A stretch of 39,568 nucleotides of DNA from Chloroflexi bacterium RBG_19FT_COMBO_62_14 (GTDB lineage Bacteria > Chloroflexota > Anaerolineae > Anaerolineales > E44-bin32), in assembly GCA_001797105.1 (NCBI GenBank), contig MGOM01000142.1, positions 55,501-95,068 of the forward strand, written 5' to 3'. Position 1 is the stretch's first letter. Each line of letters opens with the position of its first letter. Below, piece after piece: positions 4,297 to 31,507 of this stretch. Made by a program: the position numbers and the translations under genes. The notes under the pieces were generated by a model that saw only the letters and a program-made list of their open reading frames with translations, was not told the origin of the DNA and did no database searches.

Positions 4297-5970
4297 TCAG
4301 TCCCCGAACAACGTCTCGGCACCGCGTTTGGCTCGAGCCTTGCGCTCCTCGCCATCCACGACCCCTATGGCGCTGTAGAAAGACTGATCGTAGTCGCGCG
4401 TGCGAACGACCACGGGCATGGGGACGGCATGGCCCATGATGAGCGCCTGCTGGCGTGTGTCGAGCCGGGCGAGCACTTCGCGCAGCGCGCCCGCCCCGCT
4501 GACGCCGGAGAAAACCGCCCGGATGTCGGCTTCATTGTCGAGCAGACACGTCACTCGAGTTCCGATCTGGCTCATGACCTCGTCATCGATCCCGCTCGGG
4601 CGCTGATCGACGATGAGCAAAGTGACGTTGTACTTGCGCAGCTCGCGGGCGATGTTCCCGAAGATCGTGTGGCCGGCGATTTGAGGATCGAGGAACTTGT
4701 GCGCCTCCTCGATGACGATCATCAGCGGCCGGGGTTCATCGGCCTGTCCGCCGGCGTGACGGTTCATTCGGTCGACATAGCGAGCGTGGATGCGCCGCGT
4801 CAGATAGTTGGCCACCAGCACGTAGGCCGCCAGTGTGTTGCCGTATCGGCCGAATTCCAGGACGATGCTCGTTCCGAGATTCAGTCGATTGAAGATATCA
4901 TCGACGGCCTCATCGCCCTTACCAGGGACAAGGAAACCCATTCGGCGGAAGAACGATTCGAACTTGCGCTGGATCGCGTCCAGCGTTCCGGGCAGGATCC
5001 GGCCGCTTAGCACCAACTCCTGAAGTTCTTCCCCCGCTTGCTCTTCTTCCAGCAGTTTGGCGATCCAGGCCGGGCCCAGCCTGCGTCGCAGGTAGTAAAG
5101 AGCCCCGGTCTGGATGTCGCTCAGCCCCATCAAGCCGGCGAGCATCTCCACATCCTCCGGCTCTATCTGCTCGTAGCCGATCTTGAGGATACGGTCGATC
5201 TTGCTACCGCGCGCTCGCGAGGTCTCCTCATCCAGCGTGACCACGTTCACTCGCCCGTCGGGGAAGAGCTGCCGCAAGCCTTTGTACTGGTGCTGACCCT
5301 CCCCCTTGACCGCCCAGCCGTAGTCGTTATGCATATCGAAGACCAGGCTTGAGGCCAATCCGGACTTGACGATGCCGGCCAAGATGGTGCGGGTGATGAA
5401 GGACTTCCCGGTGCCGCTCTTGCCGAAGACACCCGAGGAGCGCGCAACGAAACGGCCCAGGTCGAGATTTACCTGGACGAGCTCCATGTCGAGAGGCGAG
5501 CCGATGAAGAAGTGGCTCTGATCTTCACGGCCGAAGACCCGCTCGACATCCGCTGCAGTCGCTTCGTGCACGCGGCTGAAGTGGGCCGGGATCGTCTTGA
5601 TCGGGCGCGGTTCTTGGGCACCCTCATCCAGCACGAGCATCGGGGTCACCTGCATCGCCCCATAGGCGACGCTGCCACGGTAAACCTCGGCGCTAAAACT
5701 ATCGGAGGGGTCCGGGGGCCTTCGGGGAAGGTCGGGATTGGCGGCGTCCAGGAGGATGTCGGTGATGATGCCGAAGAACGTCCGTCGGCTCTGACCTTGG
5801 ATAACCACGTAGCGGCCGACGGCGAGGCGTTCGATAGACAGATGGGGGTCGAGCTTGACCCTCAAGCCGGCGGAAAGGGATCCGCCGACGACGGTCCCCA
5901 GAGGTGTCTCGCCCTGGCGTTCGCCGAAGTAGGAGTCGAGATCCGAGGCATCGGTCATCCGGCCCTCCAA
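4297..5970 (-). CDS. herA: HerA-like FtsK/HerA-superfamily ATPase (HAS-barrel + DUF87-type P-loop)
   Basis: N-terminal barrel-like LGTVVGGSLSAGLRVKLD...VGRYVVIQGQSRRTFFGIITDI. Walker A GKSGTGKS. Walker B LMIVIEEAHKFL. Also LLIVDQRPSGID. Confidence 0.85.
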   Translation of the reverse strand: MEGRMTDASDLDSYFGERQGETPLGTVVGGSLSAGLRVKLDPHLSIERLAVGRYVVIQGQSRRTFFGIITDILLDAANPDLPRRPPDPSDSFSAEVYRGSVAYGAMQVTPMLVLDEGAQEPRPIKTIPAHFSRVHEATAADVERVFGREDQSHFFIGSPLDMELVQVNLDLGRFVARSSGVFGKSGTGKSFITRTILAGIVKSGLASSLVFDMHNDYGWAVKGEGQHQYKGLRQLFPDGRVNVVTLDEETSRARGSKIDRILKIGYEQIEPEDVEMLAGLMGLSDIQTGALYYLRRRLGPAWIAKLLEEEQAGEELQELVLSGRILPGTLDAIQRKFESFFRRMGFLVPGKGDEAVDDIFNRLNLGTSIVLEFGRYGNTLAAYVLVANYLTRRIHARYVDRMNRHAGGQADEPRPLMIVIEEAHKFLDPQIAGHTIFGNIARELRKYNVTLLIVDQRPSGIDDEVMSQIGTRVTCLLDNEADIRAVFSGVSGAGALREVLARLDTRQQALIMGHAVPMPVVVRTRDYDQSFYSAIGVVDGEERKARAKRGAETLFGD

Positions 5971-24005: not shown

Positions 24006-25868
24006 ATGATGGCTGAGCTCGACGGGATCCAGCCGATACTGGAAGGCATTCCCTCCAAGCCTGGTTGTTATCTCATGAAAGACCGGGCGGGGAGGGTCAT
24101 TTATGTTGGTAAAGCTGTGAATCTGCGCAACAGAGTGCGCTCGTACTTTCACGCCTCGAGCGGTCACTCCCGCAAGACGGCGGAGATGGTCGGTCACATC
24201 AGTGACATCGAGTGGATCGTCGTCGATTCCGAGCTCGAGGCGCTGATCCTGGAAATGAACCTCATCAAGCGTCACCGGCCGAAATACAACATACGCTTGA
24301 AGGATGACAAGCGCTACCCGTACGTCAAAGTGCATTGGGCCGATCCATTCCCCAAGGTCACGGTTACCCGGCGGATGGAGGATGACGGGAGCCGCTATTT
24401 CGGCCCTTACACGAGCATGTGGGCCGTTCACCAGACCCTCGATGTCCTGCGCAGGATCTTCCCCTACCTGACGTGCGACCGAGTGATCACGGGCCAGGAC
24501 CCCCGGGCGTGCCTGTACCACGACATCAAGCTTTGCCTGGCGCCCTGCATCGGCGCGGTCGACCAGACGATGTATCGGGCGATGATCCATGACCTGTGTC
24601 GCTTCCTGGAAGGAAACACCGAAGCCGTCGTCGAAGGCATGCGCAGGCAGATGAATCAGGCTTCGGAGGAGATGCAGTACGAACGGGCGGCGGCCACACG
24701 CGATCAACTGACCGCTATCGAGAAGGTCGTCGAAGGGCAGAAGGTTGTCTCACAAGACAAGATCGATTCGGATGTGATCGCCTTTGCCCGGGACGACAAC
24801 GATGCATGTGTGCAGATCTTCTTCATTCGAGGGGGGAAACTGATCGGCCGCGAATACTTTGTGCTTGAGGGCACACGCCAGGCGGACGATAAGGAGGTAT
24901 TGGAAGCGTTCGTCAAGCAGTTCTACACCGAAGCAGCCCAGGTTCCGCGGCGTGTCCTTCTCCCGACGGAGATTGAGGAAAGTCGGATCATCGAGGATTG
25001 GCTCGGACGCCGCCGCGCTGACCGGAAAGTCCAGCTCGTCGTCCCCCGGCGGGGATCCAAGCGCCAGCTCATTCAGATGGCGGCGGAGAACGCCGCCGAA
25101 ACCCTGACTTCACTGCGGGCGCGCTGGGAAGCCGACCGGAGCAAGCATGTCCGGGCGCTGGCCGAGCTTCAGGATTCTCTCCGGCTCCCCGTCCCGCCCA
25201 ACCGCATCGAGTGCTACGACATCTCGAATCTGCAGGGCACAGCCGCGGCCGGCTCGATGGTGGTCTTCGAGCAGGGAAGTCCCAACCGGCGTCTCTACCG
25301 CAAGTTCACGATCAAGACCGTTCAGGGTCAGGATGATTTTGCCAGCATGGAAGAAGTGCTCCAGCGCCGACTTCGGCGCTGGCAGGTCTCTCGAGAGGAA
25401 GCGGAAAAGCCGGGCGGCAAGCTTGACCCGGCTTTTGGCATATTGCCCGAGCTGCTCATTGTCGATGGGGGGAAGGGTCAGCTGGGGCGCGCGCTGAAGG
25501 TCATTGAGTCATTCGGTTCACCCGGCTCGATGTCCGTCGCCGGCTTGGCGAAGAACCACGAAGAGATCTTCCTCCCGGATCAGCCCGATCCGGTCATCCT
25601 GCCTCGTAGCAGTGACGGTCTGTATCTCATGCAGCGCATTCGGGATGAGGCTCACCGCTTTGCCCTTCGTCAACACCAGACGCAGCGACGCATGACTGGG
25701 CTGGCTTCCCAGCTCGACTCGATCAGCGGAATCGGCCCGGCCCGACGGAAAGCGCTGATCCGGGCCTTTGGCTCGCTCGATGGGGTCAGACAGGCCCCGG
25801 TCGAAGACCTCATGAACATTCCCGGCATCACCCGCGCTCTGGCCGAACGAGTGAAAGCCGGATTGTGA
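24006..25868 (+). CDS. uvrC: Excinuclease ABC subunit C
   Basis: GIY-YIG (GCYLMKDRAGRVIYVGKAVNLRNRVRSYF). UVR domain (MQYERAAATRDQL). Endonuclease domain. C-terminal (HhH)2 (ISGIGPARRKALIRAFGS...IPGI). Confidence 0.97.
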   Translation: MMAELDGIQPILEGIPSKPGCYLMKDRAGRVIYVGKAVNLRNRVRSYFHASSGHSRKTAEMVGHISDIEWIVVDSELEALILEMNLIKRHRPKYNIRLKDDKRYPYVKVHWADPFPKVTVTRRMEDDGSRYFGPYTSMWAVHQTLDVLRRIFPYLTCDRVITGQDPRACLYHDIKLCLAPCIGAVDQTMYRAMIHDLCRFLEGNTEAVVEGMRRQMNQASEEMQYERAAATRDQLTAIEKVVEGQKVVSQDKIDSDVIAFARDDNDACVQIFFIRGGKLIGREYFVLEGTRQADDKEVLEAFVKQFYTEAAQVPRRVLLPTEIEESRIIEDWLGRRRADRKVQLVVPRRGSKRQLIQMAAENAAETLTSLRARWEADRSKHVRALAELQDSLRLPVPPNRIECYDISNLQGTAAAGSMVVFEQGSPNRRLYRKFTIKTVQGQDDFASMEEVLQRRLRRWQVSREEAEKPGGKLDPAFGILPELLIVDGGKGQLGRALKVIESFGSPGSMSVAGLAKNHEEIFLPDQPDPVILPRSSDGLYLMQRIRDEAHRFALRQHQTQRRMTGLASQLDSISGIGPARRKALIRAFGSLDGVRQAPVEDLMNIPGITRALAERVKAGL

Positions 25869-26023
25869 GGCTTCAAATGTGGATTTCGGTCGGAAGCAGG
25901 AACCGGACGAAAGCCCCATTCCCCTACGGCCCCAGCGTTGAGACAATGAAAGGGGCCGACGACCGTTAGATCGGCTGTGACGGAGAGGCCCGTCCCTGCA
26001 AGCGACCCGGGCGGGGGAGACGT

Positions 26024-26467
26024 ATGGCCACCGAGTTGCGCCCGGCTGAGCGAAGTCAAGGGTTGCCGGGACAGGCTGCATGGAGTCGGATGGCGATGCC
26101 TCAAATCTGGATTATCGACGATGATGATGAGATGATCCACGCCGTTGAGCTGATGCTCAAGCTCCTTGATTGCACGGTCTCGGCCTACCGCTCGGCCCGG
26201 ATCGCGGTCCAGGACTTGATGCAAGGGAAACGGCCGGACGTTATCCTTCTCGACATCAACATGCCGGAAGTCAGCGGGATCGACATGCTCGAATTCCTGC
26301 GACGCCAGGAGAGCTTCAAGAATATCCCGGTCGTCATGCTCTCTTCCGAAACCACCGATGTGCAGGTCGATCAAGCGATGGCCCTGGGTGCGAATGCCTT
26401 CGTCTTCAAGCCGGTGTCCATCGAAGAGTTGGAAGAGGCCCTCAAGACCGCGCTGACTCGGAATTGA
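26024..26467 (+). CDS. Single-domain CheY-like response-regulator receiver
   Basis: IWIIDDDDEM, VILLDINMPEVSG, VVMLSS, ALGANAFVFKP. The start may be 26090/26096. Confidence 0.85.
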   Translation: MATELRPAERSQGLPGQAAWSRMAMPQIWIIDDDDEMIHAVELMLKLLDCTVSAYRSARIAVQDLMQGKRPDVILLDINMPEVSGIDMLEFLRRQESFKNIPVVMLSSETTDVQVDQAMALGANAFVFKPVSIEELEEALKTALTRN

Positions 26468-26608
26468 CTGCAAGAGTCTGAGTCCACGTGATCACTCGCC
26501 GCGCCAGTCGCAAGGCCGTTCCACCGCCACTCTGACACCGTGTCTAAGGCCATTCCATACCGGGAGGCTCACCCGCAGCACAAGCGGGGGTCATTGCCCG
26601 CGTTTCGG

Positions 26609-28360
26609 CTACGGAGCTTCGCCGGAGCTGTGGCCGGGGGGCTCGATAAGGATCCCCAGGCGGGCAGCCGCCTCACACAGCTTGCGCCAGTCGCGTTCGG
26701 CGACGCAGGCGCTCGTTGGCCCGAGGACCTCGCGCACAAAGCGGTTGGTAGCCCGATTCGTGCGAAGCTCCTCCAGAACAGCGGCTTGGCCGACTCTGAA
26801 CACCAGCAGGCGCTCGAGACGAGCCTCGGTGCCCCTTTCGGCCCAACGATCTAGGGCCCGGGATAGAGACTGAGGAAGCTCAGTTTCGGAGGCACTAGAG
26901 AGGATCGCTCGTGCATGACCGACCTGCAGCCCTTGCTCCGAGGCGGCCCGCAGGCTGTCCGGTGTCAGCCGGTATTGGTACACCTCGGATCCTCTGGCCT
27001 CCCAGGCGCAAAAGCGGGCGATCTGGTAACGCACAACGGGGGGCGCCAAGCGCGGAACCGTAATCAGCCCGTCAGGTCTCAAGATGACCTGTGCTCCAAT
27101 CTCGGGGGTGCTCGGAGGCGAGAACGAGACAGGTCTCGACAAGGCCGCGAACGCCGGCGTCAGACGGAAGGCGACGATCGGGCCATCGGAACCGGTGCTA
27201 CCCAGATCGGCCATCCCAAGCCAGTGGAGGGGACCGGTGATCAAACCGTGGATGAGAGCGCCTTCGACGGCATGCCAGTGGCCCAGCCCGCGCAGGAATG
27301 CCCCGGTCCGCGTATCCTGCAAGTACCATGAGTCGAAGGCCCCCGCTGGTCTCTGAAAGAATGGGCGGATATCCTCCACCGATTGAATGAAGCCAGCCAG
27401 GTCCCACCATTCGCCGGGGGCTACCTGTCCCAGGAACTCGAGGATAGCCTGCCGTGAAACCAGAGGATCATTGGGCCAGCCCCCTTGAGCCACTCGAAGA
27501 TGGGGGATATGGGCGAGATCGTTCCACCTCTTCGTTCCAGTCCAGGTGCGTCGCAGCCGGTCCAGGATGTCACATCGGTTGGAATCGAGCAGCTCCCGGA
27601 CGGCCTCGGGATCGGGTTTGAGCTTGTCGCCGGGGAGAACACCTTTTTCAACGAGGCAGGACACCAGAAGCTGGATCGATGTTGGTTGGTGGAGAAAGGG
27701 TACCAGGCCCTCCACCCGCTCCGCCGACAGACTGTTGGCGGCGGGCGGTCGGCGGCGCAGCGCCGCCAGGAGGGTGACCAGGTCGTCGACCGCCCAATCG
27801 GCCGTGGGCCAGACTTGCTCGAGCTGGGTGGCAGGCTTCGGGGTGATCGTCTCGGGGCCTGCCTCGGTTGCAGGGAGCTGGGCCAGGAGATCGTCCGGGA
27901 TGTATCCGAACTCCTGAGGTCCAGCCGGGGTGTCGAGAAACGACCGCGCGATCAAGCCGCGATACCACAGGGCCTCGAGCGCCGACGGGCCGTTGCGCCA
28001 TGGTTGCTCCCGGTCGCGCCGGCCGGGCCCCATCTGGCGGAGAGGTCCGTACTTCCGGGTCAGATCGGCGAGGGGCAGACGACCTTCGTTACGCTGGACT
28101 GCCTCCAGCGCCGCATAGGCGAGGGGCGGGAGCCCGTCAATGATTTCGGACAGCAGTCCGGGATCGAGCATAGCCCGTGAGAGCTCGCCGGCGAGCATTG
28201 CGGCACTCCCGCGTCGGAGATCGAGACCCCACAGGGCGGCGACGATGCGCAGATATCCGGGGTCCTGGTCTTGGAGCGCGACGGCTAGAGTTGGCATGCG
28301 ATGAGCGGGATGGTCCTGATCGCCCGTCGATCCGTGGACGAAGCCCGGCCAGGCGGTCAA
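26609..28360 (-). CDS. Uncharacterised protein whose C-terminal ~120 aa resemble the XPB N-terminal damage-recognition (Helicase_C_3-type) module
   Basis: YQYRLTPDSLRAASEQGLQVGHARAILSS...LPQSL...LDRWAERG...LVFRV...AVLEEL. From memory, this follows the pattern of the bacterial XPB N-terminus (YRITPLALWNA...G...L...S...VPQPL...). Start uncertain: TTG 28360 or ATG 28297. Confidence 0.55.
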   Translation of the reverse strand: MTAWPGFVHGSTGDQDHPAHRMPTLAVALQDQDPGYLRIVAALWGLDLRRGSAAMLAGELSRAMLDPGLLSEIIDGLPPLAYAALEAVQRNEGRLPLADLTRKYGPLRQMGPGRRDREQPWRNGPSALEALWYRGLIARSFLDTPAGPQEFGYIPDDLLAQLPATEAGPETITPKPATQLEQVWPTADWAVDDLVTLLAALRRRPPAANSLSAERVEGLVPFLHQPTSIQLLVSCLVEKGVLPGDKLKPDPEAVRELLDSNRCDILDRLRRTWTGTKRWNDLAHIPHLRVAQGGWPNDPLVSRQAILEFLGQVAPGEWWDLAGFIQSVEDIRPFFQRPAGAFDSWYLQDTRTGAFLRGLGHWHAVEGALIHGLITGPLHWLGMADLGSTGSDGPIVAFRLTPAFAALSRPVSFSPPSTPEIGAQVILRPDGLITVPRLAPPVVRYQIARFCAWEARGSEVYQYRLTPDSLRAASEQGLQVGHARAILSSASETELPQSLSRALDRWAERGTEARLERLLVFRVGQAAVLEELRTNRATNRFVREVLGPTSACVAERDWRKLCEAAARLGILIEPPGHSSGEAP

Positions 28361-28369
28361 CCGGACGAT

Positions 28370-29281
28370 TCAGACGATCACTCGAAGCGCGGCAGGCATG
28401 ATCTCGACCTCGATGTCGCGCACCTTCGAAGTCAGCCCGGCGAACATCTCGCCGTCGGTGTGGATGGGCAACGGGGCTTCCGAGCTGAGCTGCATCCGGC
28501 GGAAACTGCCCAGGTGTACCGGTTTGAAACGACCGTGGGTACCCTTCATCACTTCGGGGATCAGACGGAACATCATCAGGCGCGACACCCGCTCAATCAT
28601 GGCGTAGTGCAGCAGTCCATCATCCGGCTTCGCCTCGGGTGCGACAAAGAACCCGCCTCCCTCACGTGGCCCGTTGCACAACGCCAACATCAGGACCTCC
28701 TTCTCGATCGTCTCCTCGTCCGTGACGATTCTCATCCGAGGGGCGTTATGGTTCCGCAGGATCGTTTGAATGACCGCCCACAGGTACATGCTGAACCCTT
28801 GCAGGCGGGTGATCTGGTAGGAATAGTGGGTGACGGTTGCGTCGAAGCCGATTCCCATCGTGTTGTCCCAGTACACTACCCGGCCATCCGCGTCACTGAG
28901 TTTACCGATATCGATCGCTCTTGTCTCTCCGGCGAAGACCCTCTGCATGGCGACTTCTGGGTCCGCCTGAATACCGACGTTCGAGCAGAAGTCGTTTCCA
29001 GAACCGATGGGCACCGCCGCCATCTTCGGCCGCCGATTGGGTGGGACACGCATGAGGCCGTTTGTCACTTCGTGCACCGTCCCATCCCCGCCTAGAGCGG
29101 CAACGACATCAAAACCCTGACGGGCGGCCTCCTCGGCCAGATCGGTCGCGTGGGCCGGGTATTCCGTCGGCGCCCAGTCGACGTTGCTGTGCTGCGTAAT
29201 GACGGATTGTAGGGAAGAGGCGATGTCCCAAGCCCGGCCGCGGTCTGCGTGTGCATTGAAGATAAGTCTAATGCGGGTCAT
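28370..29281 (-). CDS. Diacylglycerol-kinase-family lipid kinase (DAGK_cat; YegS/BmrU-like)
   Basis: VVAALGGDGTVHEVTNGL. GGAGG lies 9 nt upstream of ATG 29281. The longer track ORF has an Arg-rich, non-protein-like extension. Confidence 0.88.
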   Translation of the reverse strand: MTRIRLIFNAHADRGRAWDIASSLQSVITQHSNVDWAPTEYPAHATDLAEEAARQGFDVVAALGGDGTVHEVTNGLMRVPPNRRPKMAAVPIGSGNDFCSNVGIQADPEVAMQRVFAGETRAIDIGKLSDADGRVVYWDNTMGIGFDATVTHYSYQITRLQGFSMYLWAVIQTILRNHNAPRMRIVTDEETIEKEVLMLALCNGPREGGGFFVAPEAKPDDGLLHYAMIERVSRLMMFRLIPEVMKGTHGRFKPVHLGSFRRMQLSSEAPLPIHTDGEMFAGLTSKVRDIEVEIMPAALRVIV

Positions 29282-29545
29282 GTTGCGGCCTCCGAGGCGT
29301 CGAGTCCTGCGTCGTGGAGTTTGGTGCGGCGCGGTGTCCGCGACCCATTCCGATGTATGCGAACCGAGCGATGCGGAAGTTGTTTCTCGATCTTGAGTTC
29401 GTGCCTGGCTTCGCCGCCGAGGGACTGCGCTCCGGCACAATGGTCCACCGGCGATGCGATACGGCCCAGATCCGTTCGGGTGTCACGCAAGGCGGGCGCA
29501 GGCGGCCCATCCCCACTAATCCCACCTGACTTGGAACGTAATTCA

Positions 29546-29551
29546 ATTATA
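29546..29551 (-). promoter_or_regulatory. Perfect TATAAT hexamer on the minus strand, in an AT-rich patch upstream of the lipid-kinase gene
   Basis: Minus strand reads TTGACTATAAT. It would give a ~260-nt 5' UTR. No good -35 at 17 bp. Confidence 0.3.
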
Positions 29552-29622
29552 GTCAAAACCTCGAGGCGATTAGAAGTCGATGTTTGAGTCGAGTGTTAGT
29601 ACCTTTTTTAAGCGTGCCGCGC

Positions 29623-29651
29623 TTGACTTGCGACATGGAGACCGCTAAAGT
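29623..29651 (+). promoter_or_regulatory. Sigma70-like promoter (-35 TTGACT, 17-bp spacer, -10 TAAAGT)
   Basis: TTGACT 29623-29628, 17 nt, TAAAGT 29646-29651. Predicted TSS around 29658. Confidence 0.55.
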
Positions 29652-29657
29652 GTGTGC

Positions 29658-29922
29658 AATAGAGCCTCAGGCCACCAAAGGACTGCATGGCCCGCGTAGT
29701 CCGTGGCTAACCTCCGGCCAACCTGCCCGCACTCCCGCCCGGGAGTTGCTCGGGAAAAGAATGCGCCGACCGGCTGGAGTGACGCCCTTCCGTACTGTGT
29801 GACGACGCGGAGCCCTTCCGGCAAGAGCGGCAGTGCCGGCCGTCCTGCGGATGACAGGAGGCTCTCTCCTAATGATCATGGAGAGCTCCATTCGACCGGC
29901 CCTTGGGTCGGTCGTTTCTTTT
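29658..29922 (+). ncRNA. Candidate ~265-nt structured RNA (class unassigned), bounded by a promoter and an intrinsic terminator
   Basis: Nested long-range helices: 29661-29668/29858-29865 (8 bp), 29692-29701/29801-29810 (10 bp, 1 mismatch), 29712-29719/29772-29779 (8 bp, 1 G-U), plus local hairpins. No credible ORF and no downstream same-strand gene. Confidence 0.5.
29893..29922 (+). terminator. Rho-independent terminator (9-bp GC-rich stem, CTTG loop, TTTCTTTT tail)
   Basis: CGACCGGCC-cttg-GGTCGGTCG followed by TTTCTTTT, read directly. Confidence 0.75.
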
Positions 29923-30013
29923 CCAGCCAGTCCGGGCGACCTGCGCTCCCCTGAGCGCTGCAGGAGAAGACCGGACGGCCACCCGGCCTGCGCCGACAAG
30001 GCACAGACGCCCC

Positions 30014-31267
30014 TCACCCCGTCGTCGCCTTGAGATCCCCTTTTTCGCCACCTCTAGGTCCCTTCGGCACGACCAGCTTGAACCAGGCCGGGACGACCGC
30101 CAGGCTGCCCAGGGCCACTGTGAACAGGAACGGCGCCTGCGGGCCGAACAGCTTCCAGAGCTGTCCTCCGATCCATGGCGAGGGCAGAGAGAGAATTCCG
30201 GTGCTGGTCGTGATGAGTGCATAGGATATCCCCCGAAGTGACTGGGGGACCCCTTTCGAGATCAGGGACTGAATCGGTGGATCCATCAAGGCAACTCCGA
30301 TGGCCAGCATCGACCACGACAGGGTAAACCCCCAGAAGCCTTGGGCGAAGGCGAAGGCCAGGCGTGAGCTCAGGACCATGAAGAGACCGGAGATCAACCC
30401 GACCCTGTCGCTTGTCTTATCGGCGAACCAGCCGGCCGGGAAGCCGAAGGCGACGAGGACGATCCCGAACATCCCATCCAGAAGGCCGATCTGTTGGATG
30501 GTCAGGCCGCCGATATCGCTGAGATAAACCGGCATCAGATCGAACGAGAGCCTGAAAGCGACATCGCGCACGCCGTCTGTGATCAGAAGCCATGTCACCA
30601 GGCCGCCGGAGAAAACGAGAGCCGCCATCTGGACCATGGAAGTCCGCATCGACGCCCATGTTGGTGCGGGACGGGCCGTAGCTCGGGAGGGGCGACGGCT
30701 GAGGTGATCGAGAATGAGGAAGACGTCGGCGGCCAGGGCGAAGAGCATTGCCGCGCCGACAAACATGAATCGAAAGCCAAGGTTCTGGGCCAGGAAGCCC
30801 CCGATGGGTGCGCCGAAGATCCAGGCCAGGTTCACCGCCGATTCCGAGATCCCAAAAACCCGCCCCCGGTATTTCTCACTCGTGTAGTCGGCGACGTAGG
30901 CCTTGTACGAGGGCCAGGTCAATGCGACGGAAAGAGCAAGGAAGGCCGCACCAATGAGGGCCAGTGGCCAGATCCGGACCAGGGCGAAGGCGGCGAAAGC
31001 AAACACACCTGCAGCGCTGCCCAGGGCTAGAGCGCGTAAGCGGCCAAGGGCATCCGACAGCCAGCCGCCGACGATGCCCAGGGCGAGCACAAGCCCGCCG
31101 GAAATCGTGAAGAAGAACCCGATCTGTCCAACGTCTGCGCCAAGCGATAGCAGGAAGACGGGGATCTGGATCGCCGTCATCGTACGCGCCGTCTCCGCAA
31201 GTGCCATCGCCGCCAGGAAGACGCCGAGGCGTTTGGACACAAACGGCGGCAAGCTGTTATTGCCCAT
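30014..31267 (-). CDS. MFS transporter (12 TM)
   Basis: Motif-A-like GGWLSDALGRLRAL. Hydrophobic periodicity throughout. Start ATG 31267 is preferred; the track start is 31405. Confidence 0.85.
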   Translation of the reverse strand: MGNNSLPPFVSKRLGVFLAAMALAETARTMTAIQIPVFLLSLGADVGQIGFFFTISGGLVLALGIVGGWLSDALGRLRALALGSAAGVFAFAAFALVRIWPLALIGAAFLALSVALTWPSYKAYVADYTSEKYRGRVFGISESAVNLAWIFGAPIGGFLAQNLGFRFMFVGAAMLFALAADVFLILDHLSRRPSRATARPAPTWASMRTSMVQMAALVFSGGLVTWLLITDGVRDVAFRLSFDLMPVYLSDIGGLTIQQIGLLDGMFGIVLVAFGFPAGWFADKTSDRVGLISGLFMVLSSRLAFAFAQGFWGFTLSWSMLAIGVALMDPPIQSLISKGVPQSLRGISYALITTSTGILSLPSPWIGGQLWKLFGPQAPFLFTVALGSLAVVPAWFKLVVPKGPRGGEKGDLKATTG

Positions 31268-31507
31268 GACTACGGCACTGCCCCCATCGTGAATTGTGGC
31301 GCGAGGCCCAAGCCGGGGAGAAAGACCGCTGGGCGAAGGAGGACTCGTCCAGCCAGTTGATCTGAAGCCAGGTGCTATTGTGCCACCTTCAAGACGCAGA
31401 TGCAACCATGCTCTGGCACGAATGAGTGACCATTGCCGACCGAGTTCAATTCAATGCAGCATTGGCGAGCGGGGAGCGACATTGCGGGGGTGGAAAGCAG
31501 AACCGGC

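Follow-up and report, generated by a model that had tools for sequence, protein, structure and literature searches.

Abundant stand-alone structured RNAs of bacteria include 6S RNA, signal recognition particle (SRP) RNA, and the Y, OLE and CsrB-type RNAs. Structured-RNA classes of ~200 nt with strong covariation are rarely found, and 6S, OLE, raiA, HEARO/omega RNA and ROOL/GOLLD each opened new biology. Here we describe an RNA gene in a 39,568-nt stretch of DNA from Chloroflexi bacterium RBG_19FT_COMBO_62_14 (contig MGOM01000142.1, positions 55,501 to 95,068; this whole stretch is hereafter the window, and positions are counted from its first nucleotide). The conserved and expressed unit, delimited by homology and by metatranscriptome contigs, spans ~205–210 nt of the + strand (~29659–29868, ends approximate). 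In kind it comes closest to orphan structured RNAs that stand alone, of which the raiA motif RNA of Firmicutes and Actinobacteria (~200 nt) is an example. Like raiA, it is a separate ~200-nt transcript with its own promoter and terminator, it has several helices, invariant unpaired nucleotides and peripheral hairpins that vary, and it is abundant, lacks a cis target and has a function that cannot be deduced from sequence. The two RNAs are unrelated: no Rfam 15 model, raiA included, matches the window RNA at E ≤ 10, and phylum, helix topology and gene neighborhood all differ. As judged by sequence comparison, the RNA matches no described family and constitutes a new structured-RNA family with comparative and expression support. 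That it is a real stand-alone structured RNA gene is nearly certain. On balance, and with modest confidence, we favor the fuller reading of a new-family stand-alone structured RNA of uncultured Anaerolineales that acts in trans and is most likely bound by protein.

Homologs of the RNA were collected by two routes. Sixteen loci were fetched via the DAGK/YegS-type lipid kinase encoded beside the RNA gene, and RNA homology was detected in four of them (L013, L003, L001 and L004), where window positions 29594–29871 have a homologous counterpart upstream of the kinase gene and a 24-nt segment, CCGGCAAGAGCGGCAGUGCCGGCC, is identical to the window. An invariant 20-mer from the alignment of the window with these kinase loci was used to scan metagenome contigs and returned 100 loci; ~10 proved to be chance matches in unrelated DNA and were set aside, and the remaining loci showed homology over the whole RNA at 68–93% identity. 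The resulting family set comprises 71 distinct sequences (MAFFT alignment A2), with homology by nhmmer, BLAST and a covariance model covering about 29595–29871. The family was gathered mostly with one exact 20-mer, which forces invariance of the side hairpin P7 (described below) in the members found in that way (66 sequences). No copy of the RNA was found by the covariance model, with filters on or off, beside more distant DAGK homologs (35–59% identity) from Promineifilaceae, other Chloroflexota and Planctomycetaceae. A weak full-length match of the model (13.9 bits; L035:3708-3878, − strand) lies inside an apparent coding region and is regarded as spurious; the contig in question has a true copy as well. 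Among the 120 best DAGK homologs (≥63% identity), those with a source name come from uncultured Anaerolineales or Chloroflexota metagenome-assembled genomes, with no cultured host among them. By its kinase relatives, the window belongs to uncultured Anaerolineales/Anaerolineae of the phylum Chloroflexota. In the sequences compared, the RNA family is found so far only in uncultured Anaerolineales (Chloroflexota).

We determined the fold by RNAalifold and pair counting on the 71-sequence alignment, with slid-partner and shuffle controls. Across five helices, 94.6% of pair cells are standard pairs, as opposed to 29–48% when the 3′ partners are slid by 1–3 columns; both partners have changed in 21 pairs and 175 cells, and the observed pairing values were reached in 0 of 500 shuffles. 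Default RNAalifold runs on MAFFT alignments gave only part of this fold. Most of P4 and all of P8/P9 were misaligned by MAFFT, and these helices were therefore tested by partner permutation. The covariance model R1 scores 186 bits on the + strand versus 11.6 bits on the − strand, and the fold contains many G-U pairs that would be C-A on the opposite strand; the RNA is thus read from the + strand. By folding energy neither strand stands out (minimum free energy z-score ~−1.3), so the case for a structured RNA rests on comparison with relatives.

The fold begins with a closing stem, P1–P3, of ~25 bp (29662–29686/29839–29864), in which 21 pairs are scored, 92% of cells are paired and 8 pairs are changed on both sides. 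The stem carries a tandem A.G/G.A mismatch at 29669–70/29856–57, replaced by A-U/G-C in L020 and L073, and opens into a three-way junction with two branches, the side hairpin P7 and a long arm formed by P4, P5, P6 and an apical hairpin. P4 pairs 5′ GGCCCGCGU (29689–29697) with 3′ ACGCGGAGCC (29805–29814), leaving A29811 bulged, and is supported by partner-specific complementarity: the energy with the own partner is −15.3 kcal/mol versus −10.9 kcal/mol for permuted partners, 0 of 1000 permutations are as good, and all three core pairs are changed on both sides, with partner-specific examples in UUUCUCAUCG/CGAUGAGAAA (L078) and GCUCCGUCG/CGACGGAGC (L086). P5 (UCCGU 29700–29704/ACUGU 29794–29798) is paired in 95.6% of cells and changed on both sides in four of its five pairs (for example, G-C in 32 and A-U in 23), and P6 (CUCCGGCC 29712–29719/GGCUGGAG 29772–29779) is paired in 98.5% of cells with six of seven pairs changed on both sides. 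At the apex, P8 (CCCG/CGGG, 29726–29/29751–54) encloses the variable hairpin P9 (ACUCCC/GGGAGU, 29731–36/29741–46). When 55 distinct apical segments were folded singly, nearly all gave a hairpin of the P8/P9 type built from unrelated stem sequences, and the P8/P9 halves pair better with their own partner (−17.2 kcal/mol) than with permuted ones (−12.8 kcal/mol), with 0 of 1000 permutations as good.

This fold can be set against the earlier note on the window, made from the sequence alone, which had proposed three nested long-range helices, two local hairpins and two mutually exclusive hairpins at the apex. With homologs now in hand, compensatory or partner-specific change backs all three long-range helices: AGAGCCUC/GAGGCUCU (29661–68/29858–65) is the outer end of the closing stem, CCGCGUAGUC/GACGACGCGG is P4, and the third is P6. 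The local hairpin at 29818–22/29835–39 corresponds to P7 and the apex hairpin at 29732–36/41–45 to P9. The other local hairpin (29670–74/29688–92) is not conserved and clashes with the closing stem, which covaries. Nor is there support for the second apex hairpin (29738–43/49–54); nucleotides 29751–54 pair with 29726–29 in P8. The window copy itself departs from the family in P5, where two of the five pairs are lost through G-to-U changes without compensation, U29700 and U29796; the variants expressed in other populations have G at 29700 and mostly G at 29796 (A in one run). In the window and L057, GUC/GAC (29699–701/29801–03) can extend P4, a possible register shift.

The unpaired segments of the RNA are conserved at two sites. 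The first is P7, a side hairpin at the three-way junction with stem CGGCA/UGCCG and the 10-nt loop AGAGCGGCAG (29819–29838). The second is the nearly invariant GCCCUUCC (29784–29791; 69 of 71 homologs), which lies within the large asymmetric internal loop that separates P5 from P6, on its 3′ strand; the largest internal loop of the fold measures ~7 × 14 nt. No covarying partner for GCCCUUCC was found, and a partner test among the junction strands gave no partner-specific signal for pseudoknots between junction segments, with one slight exception, a pair of apical junction strands (−0.75 kcal/mol) that fits a short helix in some clades. From the pattern of conservation, the RNA is marked by invariant unpaired nucleotides at two sites, P7 with its junction and the GCCCUUCC loop with the apical junction, and by a dispensable variable apical hairpin. 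In the window RNA GCCCTTCC occurs twice, at 29784–29791 and 29812–29819, 28 nt apart; the second copy, which in most relatives reads GGCCUUCC, begins in the last part of P4 and runs into P7.

A conserved, unpaired C/U-rich segment is also what a trans base-pairing regulator would display. On this alternative, GCCCUUCC would pair with G/A-rich mRNA sites, such as ribosome-binding sites, and the fold would serve to protect and present the seed. In Gram-positive bacteria, RsaE/RoxS and 6C RNA work through C-rich seeds, and the near invariance of GCCCUUCC in an internal loop that lacks a covarying partner, a second CCUUCC beside P7, and a 3′ U-tract after a stable stem, as in many small RNAs (sRNAs), all fit. 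However, a covarying multi-helix structure of ~200 nt with an invariant P7 far exceeds what seed presentation needs, no target was identified, and GGAAGGGC is not enriched in the window (5 occurrences versus 2.9 expected, two of the five being the RNA itself). We consider a base-pairing function unlikely.

The RNA is preceded by a σ70-type promoter (29623–29651, + strand) with −35 TTGACT (29623–28), a 17-nt spacer and −10 TAAAGT (29646–51), at the place the earlier note had assigned to it. Three promoter-like sites were found in the region versus 0.2 expected. All 71 homologs have TTGAC(T/C) and a spacing of 16–18 nt, and 68 of 71 have a TAnnnT-type −10, and the spacer sequence is free to vary among them. 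The −10 element ends 8–11 nt ahead of the first helix in the 71 homologs, and this distance therefore predicts a start 1–4 nt ahead of the fold, at ~29658–29660. Further upstream lies a nearly invariant block, TAGTACC-TTTTTTAAG (29597–29612, + strand; family form (G/T)TAGTACC-TTTTTT-AAG across the 71 homologs), which occurs once in the window with 0.01 matches expected. Its T-tract sits ~46–55 nt ahead of the predicted start, at the usual distance of an UP element, and its position and composition suggest an UP-like role. The GTAGTACC part of the block (29597–29604), with its palindrome GTAC, matches the promoter hexamers in conservation; lying between the RNA gene and the divergent DAGK gene, it may instead be a site where a regulator acts on both.

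Environmental RNA provides direct evidence of transcription. Words of the RNA are present in 37 metatranscriptome runs, and each of the 12 runs examined contained at least one contig of 150–192 nt on the RNA alone, from sources including sediment, soil, river, salt marsh, estuary and fish gut. Contigs span 29670–29860 of the window in eight of eight runs, mostly at 95–99% identity (90–95% in one run), with empty flanks. For an L023-type member, contigs from separate studies are 100% identical, start at 5249–5251 and end at 5440–5441, again with empty flanks, and these ends lie 6–8 nt inside the predicted RNA ends, as expected from random-primed libraries. Contig ends fall within a few nucleotides of one another, and one contig is a single library insert between adapters. 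The contigs carry no strand information, and their depth is a rough guide to abundance only. The discrete transcript expected of a stand-alone RNA is thereby observed: it is a discrete, comparatively abundant RNA species in environmental RNA, with ends that are approximate as read from contigs.

Two kinds of 3′ end are found in the family. In the window an intrinsic terminator with a 9-bp stem and tetraloop, CGACCGGCCC-UUGG-GGGUCGGUCG followed by UUUCUUUU (29893–29922, + strand), consists of a hairpin at 29893–29914 and then TTTCTTTT. Terminator-like sites alone are within chance (2 found versus 1.3 expected), and the hairpin is kept with compensatory stem changes in L057, L013 and L022 (CGACCGG/CCGGUCG versus GUGACCGG/CCGGUCAC). 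This separate hairpin, ~30 nt downstream of the closing stem, is present only in the window, L057, L013 and L022, which have no T-run directly after the stem. In 58 of 69 homologs a run of at least three T follows, in nearly all starting 4–6 nt after the closing stem, and in most members the closing stem itself probably acts as the terminator stem. The terminator proposed earlier is thus real and belongs to the window's sub-lineage, being absent from the rest of the family. The length of ~265 nt suggested for the RNA would hold for the window's primary transcript, and the conserved and expressed unit is shorter, at ~205–210 nt.

The region does not encode a protein, as the earlier note had also judged. 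Stop-free frames exist because the sequence is G+C-rich, but they differ between homologs, and variability shows no 3-nt periodicity (phases 0.226/0.230/0.231); a small-protein gene was rejected on the lack of a shared frame and of a codon-position pattern. At the 3′ end, AGGAGG (from 29856) followed 10 nt on by ATG opens a 53-codon frame (29872–30033, + strand) that crosses the terminator and enters the end of the MFS transporter gene by 20 nt. This open reading frame (ORF) is peculiar to the window and is not a gene: the AGGAGG belongs to P1 as its 3′ strand, and most relatives have GGGGG there.

From the opposite orientation of the next genes downstream, the earlier note had proposed two roles for the RNA, a stand-alone sRNA or a riboswitch-like element whose read-through would produce antisense RNA against MFS. 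The promoter, covarying fold, discrete transcripts and variable downstream gene uphold the former. MFS is the first downstream gene in only ~18 of 71 loci; elsewhere the neighbor is a HAD hydrolase gene (− strand), a CAP/LysM-type protein gene (+ strand) or further genes, and ~14 loci have a + strand gene downstream of the RNA. Because downstream gene and strand vary, both a cis or antisense link to MFS and a classical riboswitch are disfavored. Most members end at the U-tract right after the closing stem, which speaks against antisense read-through, and we rejected a cis-antisense regulator of MFS as the RNA contigs stop at the closing stem and terminator signals precede the neighboring gene. 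The RNA very probably acts in trans and not on the MFS gene.

To place the RNA among known families we searched Rfam 15 at gathering thresholds with the window, the 16 kinase-gene loci and 11 long homologous loci, and at E ≤ 10 with 601 nt around the RNA, the 218-nt RNA and seven divergent members. No family matched the RNA, even at E ≤ 10, and the weak matches obtained (Flavi_CRE, sR30, sbcD and IRE_II) are located elsewhere and are noise; the earlier decision to leave the class open was right. RNase P RNA, transfer-messenger RNA (tmRNA) and tRNA gave no model match or ARAGORN detection. In the literature searched, the invariant word was not found, nor was anything relevant on 6S RNA in Chloroflexi or structured RNAs in Anaerolineae.

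Resemblance to the cobalamin riboswitch (RF00174) had been noted from the sequence, and the two are alike in size, in complex junctions and in a local look-alike, GGGAA, in this RNA. The segment GCCCUUCCGUACUGU had been likened to the GCCCCCGCUACUGU-type stretch of cobalamin riboswitches. The likeness proves superficial: GCCCUUCCGUACUGU is an internal-loop strand that runs into the 3′ strand of the long-range helix P5, whereas the riboswitch counterpart lies in the C-rich L5 hairpin loop. With the B12 box consensus AGYCMGGAGACCKGCC, no box occurs inside 29597–29922 at ≤3 mismatches (10 matches in the window versus 4.6 expected). The RNA does not stand as a 5′ leader of genes for cobalamin biosynthesis or transport or of B12-dependent genes; what follows it varies between MFS (−), HAD (−) and CAP/LysM (+), and no cobalamin-related genes are among the neighbors of the examined loci. 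A cobalamin riboswitch (RF00174, RF01482 and RF01689) was rejected on the absence of a model match at E ≤ 10 and of a B12 box and on the different structural context of the look-alike.

Some cobalamin riboswitches reside on sRNAs, and Rli55 and EutX resemble this RNA as aptamer-like RNAs that end at a terminator without a downstream gene. More broadly, the RNA could be a ligand-binding RNA of riboswitch type, either working as an sRNA or controlling its own termination, with read-through entering downstream DNA and, in the window, running antisense to MFS. Its architecture is aptamer-like, with nucleotides conserved at the junctions, stems that covary and a peripheral hairpin that varies; the U-tract directly after the closing stem means that stem stabilization could favor termination, and ~14 loci have a + strand gene downstream. 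Yet neither downstream gene nor strand is conserved, and the + strand neighbor encodes a CAP/LysM-type secreted protein with no obvious ligand logic. Nor is there a covarying alternative (anti-terminator) pairing, a riboswitch-family match or a B12 box, and the sub-lineage of the window terminates at a hairpin of its own that is not part of the aptamer-like fold. A ligand-binding RNA of this type is therefore improbable in our estimate.

The comparison with 6S RNA (RF00013) draws on similar features. Both RNAs are of similar size, have ends paired in a long stem and a strong promoter, and are easily detected; the length of ~205–210 nt and the high abundance (12 of 12 runs, with flanks unassembled) agree with the ~180–200 nt and high abundance of 6S RNA. 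The general model fails to detect the 6S RNAs of several lineages, and a 6S analog, an abundant promoter mimic binding RNA polymerase holoenzyme where the standard 6S model fails, would be a special case of a protein-bound RNA. The long closing stem formed by the paired ends, the strong promoter of its own and the ready visibility in metatranscriptomes suit such an analog, as does the lack of a canonical 6S RNA in the 270 kb of related DNA scanned, which covers local context only and is weak evidence. The 6S covariance model (RF00013) gives no match, even at E ≤ 10, and the fold is at odds with a large two-sided central bubble: it has a three-way junction with a side hairpin, only 2–4 unpaired nucleotides on the 5′ strand at that junction and a largest internal loop of the size given above, and the covarying P4 closes the would-be bubble. 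In addition, strong sequence conservation over long invariant stretches differs from 6S RNAs, which conserve shape over sequence. We regard a 6S analog as highly unlikely.

Bacterial SRP RNA (4.5S; RF00169 and RF01854) is likewise a housekeeping-style promoter-to-terminator RNA whose ends meet in a long irregular helix, and the 3′ strand UGGCAGGG resembles the distal part of helix 5 of Escherichia coli 4.5S RNA. No SRP model matched, and inspection by eye, in place of a formal search, found no GNRA-capped domain IV (helix 8) hairpin: the apical loop is variable, and P7 is capped by the 10-nt AGAGCGGCAG. A catalytic RNA or enzyme RNA subunit of a new kind would also account for strongly conserved unpaired nucleotides at two junctions in a compact multi-helix fold. 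The contigs give no sign of an internal processing site, being uninterrupted with no joints or internal ends reported, and there is no repeated or mobile context; given also a low prior probability, this explanation is very improbable.

We lean, with modest confidence, toward an undescribed class of abundant RNA specific to uncultured Anaerolineales, be it a new ribonucleoprotein, a ligand sensor or a catalytic RNA, and not a disguised 6S RNA, SRP RNA or riboswitch, whose active or contact sites would be the GCCCUUCC loop and P7. The combination of invariant nucleotides outside the helices, helices that covary and an apical hairpin that is free to vary suggests a ribonucleoprotein role. In the model that we favor, a σ70-type promoter with an upstream T-tract drives an RNA that starts 1–4 nt ahead of the closing stem. 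In most members the closing stem and following U-tract would end transcription, and in the window's sub-lineage the separate hairpin 30 nt further on would do so, giving a primary transcript of ~265 nt. The RNA would then act in trans as a scaffold or decoy for a conserved protein, with P7 and the GCCCUUCC loop as the putative protein contact sites. The ribonucleoprotein step, taken alone, is tentative, and what suggests it is solely analogy with 6S, SRP, Y, OLE and CsrB-type RNAs.

Several points weigh against this model. No protein partner was identified and no RNA-binding-protein gene is linked to the locus; metabolite aptamers and ribozymes just as typically combine invariant junctions with stems that covary and a hairpin that varies; and GCCCUUCC, being C/U-rich, might act as a seed for base pairing. 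The ends of the RNA come from strandless contigs and not from mapped 5′ and 3′ ends, contig depth is a poor measure of abundance, and collection of the family mostly with one exact 20-mer limits what the set can say of its breadth and of the conservation of P7.

This RNA brings together a covariation-tested fold, a defined promoter and direct evidence of transcription across many habitats, in a host lineage that is uncultured, globally abundant (sediments, soils and digesters) and almost uncharted in its regulation. A short, very conserved and well-expressed RNA, it could serve as a marker of active Anaerolineales in metatranscriptomes. Should it prove to be a true 6S-type or other housekeeping RNA, it would fill an annotation gap in thousands of metagenome-assembled genomes; if it is not a housekeeping RNA, a new RNA function awaits discovery.

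The RNA gene is housed in a 573-nt intergenic gap (29441–30013) with minus-strand genes on both sides. The window, at 39,568 nt, contains no tRNA detectable by ARAGORN, and ~310 kb in all (the window, L001–L016 and 11 further loci) passed without a tRNA in the window or an Rfam family at gathering threshold, which is rather long for bacterial DNA. On one side of the gap lies the DAGK/YegS-type lipid kinase ORF (28370–29440, − strand; 356 amino acids with a TTG start as listed). This ORF is probably over-long: identical and near-identical database proteins have 303 amino acids, which puts the start near 29281 and would leave ~315 nt between the kinase and the upstream block of the RNA. Beyond the kinase are genes for a Helicase_C_3 protein and then uvrC. 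On the other side, the MFS transporter gene (30014–31405, − strand) is followed by genes for homoserine dehydrogenase and a HAD hydrolase. In nearly all loci with a long enough contig, the kinase and Helicase_C_3 genes point away from the RNA gene, in divergent orientation. The order uvrC, (response regulator, ~10 loci), Helicase_C_3, lipid kinase, RNA is kept in most long-enough loci (window 24006–29440; L001–L116), and rearrangements are confined to the far side of the RNA, away from the kinase.

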